Shown: piece after piece, positions 5,087 to 52,830 of the stretch | Position numbering within the stretch: position 1 is the first letter of the stretch | Layout of the letters: the number at the start of each line of letters is the position of its first letter | Source of the DNA: a virus | Taxonomy: Duplodnaviria; Caudoviricetes | Length of the DNA stretch: 64,000 bases | Reading direction: 5' to 3' (one strand) | Virus record (IMG/VR): IMGVR_UViG_3300028171_000090 | Span: 96,001 to 160,000 of that record | Program-made: the position numbers and the translations under genes | The notes under the pieces: model-generated | What the model was told of the DNA's origin: nothing | The model's database searches: none | The model's input: only the letters and a program-made list of their open reading frames with translations

Positions 5087-5106
5087 AAATTAAAAGAAAT
5101 TATAAC

Positions 5107-5125
5107 TATACATTATAGAGGTGAG
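5107..5125 (+). promoter_or_regulatory. Early-type phage promoter TATACATTATA-N3-GTGAG
   Basis: Perfect copy of a motif recurring about 10 times, always intergenic and co-oriented with the downstream gene. Confidence 0.75.
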
Positions 5126-5307
5126 ACCAAATAAAATATAAGGAGGAATCACTTCTATAATCGATGTTATTAAAAATTAATATCGGCTTAACAAGGTATT
5201 GGGAGAGATGAGACTGCTCATCCCAATAACCAAATATTAACAAACTACAATAACCATAACAAATTATTGTAGGAAAAATATACTTAACTTAATTGGAGGA
5301 AATTAAA

Positions 5308-11458: not shown

Positions 11459-11986
11459 ATGGAAATTATGAGAGCATTTGGAGCTTCAGGAGTGACAATG
11501 CCGTCACCCGACAAACTTACTATTTATTATAAAAGAGAAGCTTTAAGGGATTTAATATCAAAAGACCTTAATGCAAAAGAACGTCATAAGCAAGGAGACA
11601 AATTACTTAAATCTCTTGCTCATGCAACAGGAATGATTGATACTTGGGAACGGTTCAAGTTGAATCCGCTATATGAAGTGGAATATATTTTATATGGAAA
11701 TTGTGGACTATTAGGTTACTCTTATGATGGAGTACCAGTAGTATTTGATATAAATAAAAATGGTGCGTTTATGTTAGTAAAGTTTACAACTTACTTAGAT
11801 TGTGTAGCACCTGAAGAATTACGAGTAAGTGATATTATGGATTTAAACGCTGTATTCTTAGCGGAAGAACTCTTTATGGATTTGGGAATTGAACGTTGTG
11901 GAGAAACTGTATCGAAAGGTTATCCGACAGTATACATGATTTTACCTAGGACGTACCAGATACCAGACCCATATATAAAATCGTAA
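11459..11986 (+). CDS. Hypothetical protein
   Basis: AGGAGG RBS, 175 aa. Confidence 0.7.
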   Translation: MEIMRAFGASGVTMPSPDKLTIYYKREALRDLISKDLNAKERHKQGDKLLKSLAHATGMIDTWERFKLNPLYEVEYILYGNCGLLGYSYDGVPVVFDINKNGAFMLVKFTTYLDCVAPEELRVSDIMDLNAVFLAEELFMDLGIERCGETVSKGYPTVYMILPRTYQIPDPYIKS

Positions 11987-12002: not shown

Positions 12003-12021
12003 TATACATTATATCTGTGAG
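12003..12021 (+). promoter_or_regulatory. Early-type promoter
   Basis: TATACATTATA-TCT-GTGAG. Confidence 0.75.
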
Positions 12022-12057
12022 TATAGTTAGTACTCGTTAAATAAATAAGCTTCCCAG

Positions 12058-12169
12058 GATAGCAGGGACAAAAAGCATATGCTATCATGTGTCTTAAATA
12101 CAATACTGTAAAAAACAGTAGGGTATAGAAAAACTATTAGATAAGCATAGTATGTAAAAAGCATACTAT
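12058..12169 (+). promoter_or_regulatory. Structured 5' leader with four AAAAA-loop hairpins
   Basis: Loops at 12070, 12110, 12129, 12156; e.g. TACTGT-AAAAA-ACAGTA and ATAGTATGT-AAAAA-GCATACTAT abutting the AGGAGG RBS. Confidence 0.65.
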
Positions 12170-12186
12170 CAGGAGGAGAAACCGAA

Positions 12187-12696
12187 ATGACAATCACAAC
12201 AGTAGCTAGACCAGAAATGATGAAGGACATCGCGTTAGAGAATCAGAAGATTAATCTTTTAGAGTTAATCGTTCAGAAAGCTGAAGGGGATATCTCTACT
12301 ACATACCTAAAGAAAATCATTGATACTGTCGATGTAAGTTTAGGTTACATGGTACACGTAACTCGTGACCCAAAGGAATTTGAAAACACACTGACATTGC
12401 GTAACTATAATCGTTCAAATTCAGTATCAGGTTCTGAAGGAACTGAAGAGTTTGGACAATGCGTAATCGGTAATGAATTAGTATTTGGAACTCGTAAGAG
12501 TACAGAACATCACGGAATGTTTATTCCAAGTAAAACAACGTTTGATTTCGTTAAGCCTGAGTTTGATGAAACAAAAGTGAATGTCGTTACAATCCATCGA
12601 CATGTATGGAATAACTTGTCTGGTTCTGGAATTCCTGAATTTGACTCACATTATTTTATCCTAAATATCTATGTTCCCAGAATGGACTTAATGTAA
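12187..12696 (+). CDS. Hypothetical protein (early family ending ...IYVP)
   Basis: AGGAGG RBS; C-terminal FILNIYVP resembles ends of 51595..52086 and 52265..52726. Confidence 0.75.
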   Translation: MTITTVARPEMMKDIALENQKINLLELIVQKAEGDISTTYLKKIIDTVDVSLGYMVHVTRDPKEFENTLTLRNYNRSNSVSGSEGTEEFGQCVIGNELVFGTRKSTEHHGMFIPSKTTFDFVKPEFDETKVNVVTIHRHVWNNLSGSGIPEFDSHYFILNIYVPRMDLM

Positions 12697-12700
12697 ATGT

Positions 12701-12727
12701 ATAGAAGAGGAGATAATCCTCTTCTAT
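12701..12727 (+). terminator. Probable terminator hairpin
   Basis: ATAGAAGAGGA-GATAA-TCCTCTTCTAT; weak T tail. Confidence 0.55.
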
Positions 12728-14419: not shown

Positions 14420-14443
14420 AAACGTAACAAGAAGTAATATAAA

Positions 14444-14462
14444 GATACATTATATTAATGAG
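14444..14462 (+). promoter_or_regulatory. Early-type promoter
   Basis: GATACATTATA-TTA-ATGAG, followed by hairpin AGCATATA-CAAAA-TATATGCT. Confidence 0.65.
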
Positions 14463-14509
14463 CATATACAAAATATATGCTTCTAAATTATACTGAGGAG
14501 TGTTTAAAA

Positions 14510-16993: not shown

Positions 16994-17052
16994 ATAAAAA
17001 ATATAAACGGGTGTATCCAAAAGGTACACCCTTAAAAAGGGGAAAGGCTCAA

Positions 17053-17709: not shown

Positions 17710-17756
17710 GATAAAAAGTATATTAAAAAAATATACCTTAGAGGGAGACAAGTACG

Positions 17757-18260
17757 ATGGGAACACAGCCACATTTATTAAAATTGCTTTCTTCAAGTAC
17801 AGACTTAAAGGGGTTAGTATTAACTATTGCTCACGATGAGATAATTGCTATGATCCGTCGTGAGATTGCAGGTCATGTAAGGCTTACAGAATATGATAAT
17901 ACTAAGTCAGTCACAATTGCATATAATGATGGCGAATCAGGGGAGATTACTCATTGCTTTACTGGTCCATTAGAAGTATTAGAGTTTATAAAAGCAATGG
18001 AAACAAAGAACAATGAATTTGTCGATAACTACCGCTTTGATTTAATTGGAGCCAATGGTACATTCCAACCTATGAAAGAAGAGTTTGTCATTCATAGTTT
18101 AGGTACAGATAGCCTGTCTATTGCCTATCGTGCAAAAGATGGGGTAGCTAGTATCAAAGGACTTAAACCAAATCTATTTACTTCTAGACGATTAGGTACA
18201 GGAGGATTTAGAAACTTCCATAACATAATCGTTGATGCGGCAACCGATAAAGATTTGTAA
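17757..18260 (+). CDS. Hypothetical protein, paralogue of 17053..17709
   Basis: GAGGGAG RBS; shared motifs as above. Confidence 0.75.
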   Translation: MGTQPHLLKLLSSSTDLKGLVLTIAHDEIIAMIRREIAGHVRLTEYDNTKSVTIAYNDGESGEITHCFTGPLEVLEFIKAMETKNNEFVDNYRFDLIGANGTFQPMKEEFVIHSLGTDSLSIAYRAKDGVASIKGLKPNLFTSRRLGTGGFRNFHNIIVDAATDKDL

Positions 18261-18300: not shown

Positions 18301-18336
18301 TGTCTATTTTACTCTTACATTACCCAACATTATTAT

Positions 18337-18436
18337 AATCGGAAAATATTCCGAATTTCCTCCTCAGGTATATTATTGTACTTAGACTATGGACAAAGAA
18401 AGTGGTATAGGCGCTCAGCCTATACCACTCCTTTTT
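18337..18436 (+). ncRNA. Candidate small RNA with anti-Shine-Dalgarno seed
   Basis: AACA-N6-TA at 18326-18337, 5' hairpin TCGGAA-AATA-TTCCGA, TTCCTCCTCAGG (18357-18368), 12-bp terminator and CCTTTTT; lies between convergent terminators. Confidence 0.4.
18401..18429. terminator. Bidirectional terminator
   Basis: AGTGGTATAGGC-GCTCA-GCCTATACCACT with T-rich tails on both strands. Confidence 0.8.
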
Positions 18437-47947: not shown

Positions 47948-47971
47948 CCCTCTCAACTCCTCATTGTACCG

Positions 47972-47990
47972 CTCACTAATATAATGTATA
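47972..47990 (-). promoter_or_regulatory. Early-type promoter
   Basis: TATACATTATA-TTA-GTGAG. Confidence 0.75.
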
Positions 47991-51594: not shown

Positions 51595-52086
51595 TTAATA
51601 TTTACTACGAGCATTTGTGTAATCTTCGTTAATACGATCAGTTGGAATATAAACGTATACTGTATTTGATTCTGTAATCTTTGCACCTTCCCAATGTGGT
51701 GAATAATCTTTACGTTTAATATTAACTTTTGTTGTAGTAAATACATCTTTCATAGATGCATTCTCTCTAGTTATAATCTTACCATTCTCTGTACGATAAT
51801 TACCTACAACATAATCTCCATGGAATGGTGTTACTGAGCGAACCGTTATAGTAGAACCAGTATCACGTTTTTCATAAGTCATCACATTACGTAATGCACG
51901 ATTTTTAAAATTAGTTCTACCTTGCTTTCCTACATGAATGTGAATACTTGTATTATCATCAATCATACGTTCAAGGAAATCAGCTTCATCTTGATTTAAT
52001 AACCCGTGGGATACAATCTCTTTCATCTTTTCAGTACCTGTTTTATAAATACTAGTATTTCCGAATAATGCTAATAAGTTCGTCAT
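51595..52086 (-). CDS. Hypothetical protein, paralogue of 52265..52726
   Basis: AAGGAG RBS; GLLNQDEADFL vs NLLTKQEWEKL; ends VYVYIP. Confidence 0.75.
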   Translation of the reverse strand: MTNLLALFGNTSIYKTGTEKMKEIVSHGLLNQDEADFLERMIDDNTSIHIHVGKQGRTNFKNRALRNVMTYEKRDTGSTITVRSVTPFHGDYVVGNYRTENGKIITRENASMKDVFTTTKVNIKRKDYSPHWEGAKITESNTVYVYIPTDRINEDYTNARSKY

Positions 52087-52104: not shown

Positions 52105-52188
52105 CTATACATGTTTTTCATGTATAGTGAATATTGTTATGGACAACATTCAAACCTTTATTTGTCTACCTCACTATTATAATATATA
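52105..52188 (-). promoter_or_regulatory. Early promoter plus conserved two-hairpin leader (copy 1)
   Basis: Promoter 52188-52170; 28-nt motif 52131-52158; CTATACATG-AAAAA-CATGTATAG. Confidence 0.7.
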
Positions 52189-52264
52189 TCTTAATATATG
52201 TTAATTACGATTTTATCTATGTTCCTAAAAAAATAAGAGAACCGAAGTTCTCTTATTGTTTCTC

Positions 52265-52726
52265 CTATAATCTATAGGAAGGAATGTAGATTGACATTCT
52301 CGATGAGAATGCGGATGGCTTAATAGTATTCTCTCTACTTTCCGCTGCATTTGTAGTCACCAGCATAACGGCGAAAACATCATCCATCTCAGGTACTTTC
52401 TTTTGTGTTTCCATGCCCACTTTATGGACAAGGGTGCCAAATTCAAACTCCCCAAATAATGGTATAATATCTCTAGTAGTAATAATCATGGTGTCATCCA
52501 CTTGGATAGCCGTGTCTATTATGGTAATCTCATTGTACTTGAATGGCTCCAAGAACTCTTTTCCATAATACACACTAAGTTCAGTTGTGTGGTTGATTTC
52601 GATTAATTTCTCCCACTCCTGTTTTGTGAGCAAGTTCTCATTCAATAGCGTATCTAATAACGCTCTTTGATGAATTCCTCTTGCACGTGTAACTTCTTCT
52701 CGGTTAACTAGTAAATGCTTTTCCAT
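52265..52726 (-). CDS. Hypothetical protein, paralogue of 51595..52086
   Basis: AAGGAG RBS; ends MSIYIP. Confidence 0.75.
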   Translation of the reverse strand: MEKHLLVNREEVTRARGIHQRALLDTLLNENLLTKQEWEKLIEINHTTELSVYYGKEFLEPFKYNEITIIDTAIQVDDTMIITTRDIIPLFGEFEFGTLVHKVGMETQKKVPEMDDVFAVMLVTTNAAESRENTIKPSAFSSRMSIYIPSYRL

Positions 52727-52743: not shown

Positions 52744-52830
52744 TATGACACCTCTTTTAGGACGTCATAGCATATTGTTTCGGACAACATGCAAACCTTG
52801 TTATGCTGTGCTACACTAGTATAATGTATA
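52744..52830 (-). promoter_or_regulatory. Early promoter plus conserved two-hairpin leader (copy 2)
   Basis: Promoter 52830-52812; 28-nt motif 52772-52799 (25/28 identical to copy 1); TATGAC..CCT-AAAAG-AGG..GTCATA. Confidence 0.7.

Follow-up and report, generated by a model that had tools for sequence, protein, structure and literature searches.

The leader considered here lies in a linear 223,016-bp virus record of IMG/VR that is approximately 90% complete, and our analysis covered bases 96,001-160,000 of it (the window, 64,000 nucleotides; positions below are those of the window, and features are on the (+) strand unless marked (-)). The genome has a G+C content of 33-36% and encodes an SbcC-like ATPase with 27% identity to its counterpart in Bacillus phage AR9/PBS1, a neighbour that would place the phage near AR9/PBS1 and suggests an uncultured, AR9-like giant phage. 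The leader, with its A-rich hairpin loops, is flanked by ORF 11459-11986 (+) and ORF 12187-12696 (+). The second of these encodes a 169-aa early protein, and the region before it is most readily read as a 5′ untranslated leader of 168 nt belonging to a monocistronic early gene, 12187, with a predicted transcription start at position 12019; this length agrees with the leader of ∼165 nt put forward in the original prediction. Comparisons draw on five homologue clusters of the 169-aa product (96-52% identity) on syntenic contigs from other samples, designated by L numbers where they must be told apart.

Upstream of the leader is an early promoter of the type read by the virion RNA polymerase (RNAP), at 12003-12019: TATACATTAT occupies 12003-12012 and is followed by a 6-nt spacer, ATCTGT, and the predicted start G12019. 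The early promoters of AR9, which are read by its virion RNAP, have the form AAATATATATTAT-N6-G(+1) (PMC5312081), and the 12003-12019 element matches this consensus, including the class feature of ...TATATTAT with a G start after a further 6 nt. By sequence it is a promoter of the AR9 early class, bearing out the early promoter that had been proposed at this place, and it is kept in the relatives, where the leader alignment reads ATATATTAT-N6-G. Approximately 20 intergenic copies of a 19-nt consensus, TATACATTATATAGGTGAG, recur in the genome, all sense to the next gene and 30-180 nt ahead of start codons; examples in the window are 5104-5130, 12003-12019 and 14441-14467, together with 47960-47986(-), 52800-52826(-) and 52166-52192(-). 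The 8-mer ACATTATA is found 19 times in leaders against 1.3 expected. The AR9 late motif, AACA-N6-T[A/G], is likewise enriched in leaders (61 against 10.5 expected, or about six-fold), and the enrichment depends on the 6-nt spacing; its occurrences peak 23-50 nt ahead of start codons. Taken together, the early and late motifs would permit a full early/late map of this uncultured phage. One weak late (non-virion RNAP) promoter match, AACA-N6-TA at 12114-12125, overlaps hairpin 2 of the 12187 leader; with 62 nt between it and the AUG and an atypical, G-rich spacer, it is not kept in L002 and is probably a chance match. In L002-L008 a second early promoter (P2) is situated between hairpins 1 and 4, ∼74-76 nt before the orthologous start codon, and its predicted transcript would open with a GAUAUA-AUAAAAA-UAUAUC hairpin. 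The window and L001 have no P2 and carry hairpins 2 and 3 in its place. The idea that hairpin 3 might be what is left of the second-promoter hairpin of the relatives was rejected, as the alignment does not place the two together.

The original prediction described four stem-loops in this leader, each with a loop of five A residues. Three such hairpins are present, with stems of 6, 4 and 9 bp, the 4-bp stem being marginal; the first of the four is of another kind. Hairpin 1 (12058-12064/12080-12086, 7 bp, its stem denoted S2) has a loop of 15 nt that merely contains AAAAA and is therefore not a 5-A loop, and the A5 run within it is not conserved (CAAAAAG versus UUCAAAG). Its stem carries two compensatory pairs across lineages (AU to UA and CG to UA), with 100% of cells paired. 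Hairpin 2 (12104-12109/12115-12120, 6 bp, loop AAAAA) is specific to the lineage: it occurs in the window and L001 and is weak or absent in L003-L008, and at its place L002 carries a hairpin whose A5 loop is the same but whose 11-bp stem differs. Hairpin 3 (12125-12128/12134-12137, 4 bp, loop AAAAA) is absent from the minimum free energy (MFE) and centroid folds and has no paired counterpart in L002-L008. Hairpin 4 (12147-12155/12161-12169, loop AAAAA) has 9 bp, including one closing U·G, and ends one base before the Shine-Dalgarno (SD) sequence AGGAGGAG at 12171-12178, which is 8 nt before the AUG; a last hairpin of 9 bp abutting the SD had been proposed. The SD block, CAGGAGGAGAAAC, is invariant in all relatives. 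The loop of hairpin 4 is A5 in the window and L001-L003 and A6C in L005-L008, and its stems vary (UAGUAUG/CAUACUA, GACAUGU/ACAUGUC and GGUAUG/CAUACC), with two to three compensatory pairs. A further hairpin, P0 (12019-12035, 6 bp, loop AGUUA), sits at the predicted 5′ end of the transcript and is found in every relative; its stem shows one compensatory pair (UA to CG) and one UG-to-UA change.

Hairpins 1, 2 and 4 are part of the MFE fold of the leader, whose folding is better than that of its shuffles (z = -3.4). None of 20,000 dinucleotide shuffles yielded three A5-loop hairpins within 168 nt; when the A-runs were held fixed, 14 of 20,000 did. It is highly improbable that the stem-loops are functionless palindromes arising by chance in A-rich non-coding DNA: a genome of 34% G+C with A-rich leaders would favour such an origin, as does a hairpin 3 of only 4 bp, and against it stand the shuffle tests, the covariation and, as described below, the genome-wide excess and positional bias. 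Taken singly, chance is disfavoured for hairpins 1 and 4 and plausible for hairpin 3. A long-range pairing of CUUCC (12050-12054) with the SD, present in the MFE and centroid folds, was set aside, since it is not conserved in L003-L008. Against Rfam 15 the leader RNA gave best scores of 12.7-19.1 bits, compared with gathering thresholds of 40-115, and E values of at least 1.4. The leader also contains two tiny upstream reading frames, 12079-12111 (10 codons) and 12087-12128 (13 codons); the position of the second AUG, in AUGUGUC, is kept across relatives, no properly spaced SD precedes it and the frame lengths differ.

Across the five lineages, the structured elements kept with compensatory changes are P0, hairpin 1 and hairpin 4. 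Hairpins 2 and 3 are lineage-specific, and a conserved four-valent array is therefore unsupported: of the multivalent array originally envisaged only hairpins 1 and 4 are kept, the former having no A5 loop. What does hold is that the oligo-A loop outlasts stem turnover in orthologues. These data also bear on the suggestion of a sponge or decoy RNA, in which the leader or a processed fragment would titrate a protein through four equivalent A loops. The three A5 loops of the window lineage do fall within 60 nt, and relatives likewise show two to three A-rich-loop hairpins in the corresponding gap. However, the array is not kept in number, position or identity, no terminator was found between the leader and gene 12187 that would give the RNA an end of its own, and such hairpins are single before most other genes, leaving a sponge extremely improbable.

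Where they can be aligned, the leaders are at least as conserved as the coding sequence. Between the window and L002, identity is 90% of aligned columns in the leader, 83% in the coding sequence and 72% at third codon positions; between L006 and L008 it is 99.6% in the leader and 90% in the coding sequence, and the former value cannot be read as selection alone because the sister genomes are mosaic. Blocks of 98-100% and of 60-85% identity alternate with sharp borders in both the L006/L008 and the window/L014 comparisons, which indicates frequent recombination, and the mosaicism calls for caution in reading perfectly conserved non-coding runs.

The 5′ part of the leader contains a candidate H-type pseudoknot (12052-12086), in which UCCC (12052-12055) would pair with GGGA (12065-12068), crossing hairpin 1. 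Both tetranucleotides are invariant across lineages, and GGGA opens the hairpin 1 loop. The UCCC/GGGA pairing (S1) and the hairpin 1 stem (S2) have no nucleotides in common and a crossing topology, so that the two could form together; the first loop would then measure 2 nt and the third, which is A-rich, 9-11 nt. Taken by itself, each stem is stable, with -4.3 and -8.1 kcal/mol in the window and -6.3 and -5.7 kcal/mol in the L005 type, and S1 extends to 6 bp in the L003/L005 clade. S1 is without covariation, and the pseudoknot is therefore a candidate only. Searches of IMG/VR with the 12187 protein, with the protein alignment and with the pseudoknot motif returned no relatives, and two matches to the motif were dismissed as GC-rich chance matches. 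A metagenome scan yielded no additional lineages of the locus, and among cultured phages there were no near-identical or protein-level matches to the locus or the 12187 protein.

Judged from sequence, the leader hairpins are real and partly conserved, and the hairpin on the RBS side is a member of a phage-wide oligo-A-loop class. In 17.7 kb of sense-strand leaders, 10 of the 81 occurrences of AAAAA are pentaloops on a stem of at least 5 bp, against 1.0 expected from the overall rate; a leader base composition of A = 37.5% cannot by itself explain this approximately tenfold excess. Among leader stems of at least 7 bp, 11 have all-A loops and 3 have all-U loops. The class has a stem of 6-11 bp, a loop of A3-A5 or N-AAAA, and an end 0-12 nt before the SD; its loops range from 3 to 7 nt (AAA, AAAAA, GAAAA, CAAAA and A6C), with GAAAA in two paralog leaders. 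An end 10-30 nt before the start codon is found for 11 of 19 oligo-A-loop hairpins and for 30 of 178 other leader hairpins (Fisher p = 2e-4). Oligo-A loops held constant on variable stems, as originally proposed, are thus real, above chance, sense-strand-specific, placed beside RBSs and, as shown below, tied to one family.

Several other members illustrate the class. A 9-bp hairpin with the loop CAAAA (17009-17031) lies 24 nt before the start in the 17035 region, and its orthologues have an AAAAA loop in L014 and CAAAA on a changed, 8-bp stem in L015. A 7-bp hairpin with the loop AAAAA (17718-17736), 20 nt before the start of 17757-18260, is identical in L014. In these two further orthologous sets (L014/L015) the (C/A)AAAA loop thus outlasts stem changes. 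Separately, an 11-bp hairpin 3′ of gene 12187 (12701-12727), 27 nt before the next start codon, has the loop GAUAA in the window, AAUAA in L014 and AAAAA in L015. On the opposite strand, the leader of 51595-52086(-) has a 9-bp AAAAA hairpin at 52105-52127(-), 18 nt before the start and preceded by a UGUUGU-CCAUA-ACAAUA hairpin and an early promoter, and the last element in the leader of 52265-52726(-) is a 9-bp hairpin with the loop CUAAAAGA; the prediction had rightly assigned terminal A-loop hairpins to both leaders. Oligo-A-loop hairpins abound in the relatives' leaders. The class is absent from AR9 (150 kb) and from a 50-kb sample of Listeria phage LPJP1, an absence that makes it look like a lineage-specific system.

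Such palindromes could in principle act at the DNA level, as parts of late-type promoters or as extruded hairpins for the phage polymerases. The enrichment of the late motif in leaders is in keeping with this, as are matches to it at hairpin 2 and at the 52265 leader hairpin; moreover, the loop runs give template-strand U/T tracts, and the AR9 non-virion RNAP is reported to read the template strand. Nevertheless, the match at hairpin 2 is the poorly spaced, unconserved one described above, and by inspection a correctly spaced AACA is missing from most A-loop hairpins. Nor are hairpins enriched at predicted starts, and their fixed distance from the start codon points to RNA and translation. We consider a DNA-level signal very unlikely. 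The idea that every transcript starts with a hairpin was also discarded: a hairpin is present at 4 of the 33 early starts predicted and at 9 of the 59 late ones, compared with 14.5% of control positions.

The 12187 protein belongs to a diverged superfamily of paralogs, early proteins of 150-215 aa, most of which end in the C-terminal motif IY(I/V)P (the IYxP family). An exhaustive profile search with this protein recovered 54 representative clusters in public data at E < 1e-3; the family is absent from cultured phages, and neither the protein nor the family has a match in Pfam or PHROG. BLASTP finds no paralogs in the phage's own genome. Profile matches there are g90159 (4e-33), g18973 and g18425, to which an iterated profile adds g83279, g87291, g81418, g80820 and g147595, and many family members lie in a tandem array upstream of the window. 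The product of 12187 had been said to resemble those of 51595 and 52265. This resemblance is invisible to BLASTP (E of 0.28 and 0.97) and is seen solely at the level of distant superfamily membership: the iterated HMM reaches g147595, the product of window 51595-52086, at E = 3e-5, g147595 shares the IYxP motif, and g148265, which is 52265-52726, is a BLASTP paralog of g147595. The hhalign probabilities for 51595 and 52265 are only 28% and 9%, so the kinship is remote. A homologue search with the 51595 protein matched only itself.

An AlphaFold2 model of the 12187 protein, built from 44 aligned sequences (pLDDT 91), predicts a beta sandwich against which a long helical hairpin from the N terminus packs. 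Foldseek against the PDB, VIA-align against 48,000 chains and a BFVD search gave nothing above background, the best fold match (Z = 5.1) covering the helical hairpin only, and no OB-fold or other match to a product that binds single-stranded nucleic acid emerged from these searches. With a confident fold that matches nothing and a mildly acidic character, nothing suggests that the 12187 protein binds RNA.

The hairpin class and the protein family are nonetheless linked, with an oligo-A-loop hairpin beside the RBS in 8 of 15 family members and in 5 of 224 other genes (p = 3e-8). One explanation is autoregulation, in which IYxP proteins would bind RNA and each repress its own or family leaders through the A-loop hairpin. 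In addition to the co-occurrence, 12187 and its remote relatives 51595 and 52265 all have leaders that end in such hairpins, and the 5′ pseudoknot-plus-leader layout recalls T4 gene 32 (PMC3014915). Set against this, co-inheritance of leader and gene explains the link without any binding, the predicted helical hairpin and beta sandwich match no RNA-binding fold, and members have pI values mostly of 5-7. Moreover, several members lack the hairpin and some non-members carry it. We regard autoregulation as unlikely.

We favour instead, with a probability of about 0.4, a cis-acting hairpin beside the RBS that acts on message stability or translation. The leader would then be modular, with a hairpin at the 5′ end, a hairpin able to close into a small pseudoknot, a variable middle and an all-A-loop hairpin at the SD. 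The RBS-side hairpin would represent one copy of a cassette feature that stands before about half of an old, diverged early-protein family and has persisted while its stems and the proteins diverged until they were hardly recognisable. As a stable helix on the 5′ edge of the RBS, it would keep 5′-to-3′ decay or processing from reaching the RBS and would set the structural surroundings of the strong SD. An all-A loop would be the sole loop composition unable to pair with a purine-rich SD, and it would offer no U or G to single-strand endonucleases; under the favoured reading the loop may have been selected because A cannot pair with the SD and gives endonucleases little to act on. P0, at the 5′ end, would shield the primary transcript likewise. 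A loop length that ranges from 3 to 7 nt fits such a compositional constraint better than one rigid protein pocket.

Several observations qualify this proposal. Predicted accessibility of the SD, compared with shuffled leaders, is not consistently higher and is inconsistent across lineages, and thus neither supports nor contradicts an insulating role. Between the predicted 5′ end and hairpin 4 there are 128 nt, and because the hairpin is internal, a barrier role would need upstream processing or an internal start. Furthermore, a purely generic stabiliser should not concentrate so strongly on one gene family. This concentration can be explained by descent of the whole cassette, and equally by family-specific regulation.

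The main rival to a stabilising or translational element in cis is a shared operator, in which a trans-acting factor (an RNA-binding protein of phage or host) or the 30S subunit, through a standby or platform contact, would read the oligo-A loop beside the SD and turn translation of the whole early paralog family up or down together, much as T4 RegA or RegB act on many early messages. The loop is constant while the stems are free to vary, in orthologues and across deep paralogs alike, and this pattern would be expected of an operator, as would the tight RBS placement, the concentration in one family, the excess beyond composition and the absence of the class from AR9 and LPJP1. Arguing in the other direction, loop size varies, the leader matches no Rfam family, and no candidate factor has come to light, with Hfq, RegA, CSD and CsrA profiles finding no homologues in the genome. 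We judge a shared operator possible, if doubtful. An RNA partner was also considered: a candidate anti-SD small RNA at 18326-18436 does not prefer the 12187 leader, which ranks 80 of 239 by duplex. This candidate late small RNA (18337-18436) has an AACA-N6-TA promoter and the seed AUUUCCUCCUC, and the best target predictions for it fall in the initiation regions of genes 127648(-), 154470 and 34142(-) of the genome. A more elaborate version, which we offer only tentatively, would make the A-loop hairpins a private translational operator code of this jumbo-phage clade, with a factor (possibly an IYxP member or the ribosome platform) co-regulating at least 10 rapidly diversifying early genes and a gene-32-like 5′ pseudoknot adding a second, gene-specific layer in the 12187 leader.

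By comparison with known systems, the leader appears to resemble T4 genes 32 and 43 in layout, Gram-positive stabilisers in logic and boxB in loop chemistry, and to fail the defining features of each. Stem-loops that stabilise messages from the 5′ end have reportedly been described in Gram-positive systems, namely the aprE leader, ermC and early RNA of phage SP82. The 12187 leader has a comparable stable hairpin at its predicted 5′ end (P0) and a hairpin near a strong SD, but hairpin 4 is internal to the predicted transcript, and an all-A loop and restriction to one family are foreign to such stabilisers. The boxB elements of lambda and P22 present purine-rich pentaloops (GAAAA, GAAGA or GACAA) in N antitermination; they need a G at loop position 1 (GNRA-like), act on the host RNAP and sit in nut sites. 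Short stems of variable sequence with an A-rich pentaloop, and the GAAAA of two paralog leaders, are reminiscent of boxB, whereas the phage loops are AAAAA or CAAAA on 6-11-bp stems at RBSs and the phage has its own polymerases. A lambda-type boxB identity was rejected, since, apart from the two GAAAA leaders, the hairpins lack the pentaloop with G at position 1 and A at position 5, and they lack the 5-bp stem and the nut-site setting.

The autoregulatory leader of T4 gene 32 opens with a 5′ pseudoknot, from which A/U-rich sequence extends as far as the RBS, and T4 gene 43 has an operator hairpin (PMC3014915). Like the former, the 12187 leader places a candidate small pseudoknot in its 5′ part, ahead of A-rich sequence; like the latter, it has a conserved-loop hairpin situated a few tens of nt ahead of the AUG. 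Unlike either, its product is not an ssDNA-binding protein or a polymerase, and in contrast to gene 32, stem 1 of the knot shows no covariation and the region from knot to RBS is structured rather than single-stranded. T4 RegA sites include a 5′ oligo-A tract and are unstructured, and RegB cuts GGAG in early SDs (PMC3014915). Many early genes with a common signal at the translation initiation region are a feature shared with RegA and RegB; the RegA sites differ in being unstructured, and a RegA homologue was not found in the phage genome. In AR9 itself, 5′ UTRs span 26-491 nt and contain unexplained motifs (PMC5312081). Its early units are alike in promoter grammar, in the late motif AACA-N6-TA/G and in having long early leaders. 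They differ in that the early leaders in 150 kb of AR9 are mostly short and show no RBS-side oligo-A-loop hairpins, and in that cultured phages do not carry the IYxP family.

In jumbo phages of the AR9/phiKZ type, transcription of the genome relies on phage-encoded polymerases, and to our knowledge almost nothing has been reported on post-transcriptional control of their messages. Here, a simple feature, consisting of a stem, an all-A loop and an SD, marks the leaders of a fast-evolving early family and outlasts the change around it. If the hairpin sets stability or translation, it would give a handle on the joint expression of paralog arrays and could serve as a small module for expression engineering in Gram-positive hosts; should a factor read the loop, a new phage RNA-protein system would be at hand. 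The original picture is thereby corrected, the conserved units being single hairpins and a possible pseudoknot rather than a four-valent array.

The RBS-side hairpin also recurs next to a second repeated hairpin, (U)GUUGU-CCAUA-ACAAC(A). Five paralog leaders share a module of a UGUUGU-CCAUA-ACAACA hairpin, then an A-loop hairpin, then the SD; copies of the repeated hairpin are located at 52131-52155(-) and in the 52780-52800(-) region of the window, and in the leaders of genome genes 83279, 83882 and 87956. CCATA forms a pentaloop in 4 of its 21 leader occurrences, and one copy of the repeated hairpin carries CCGAA.
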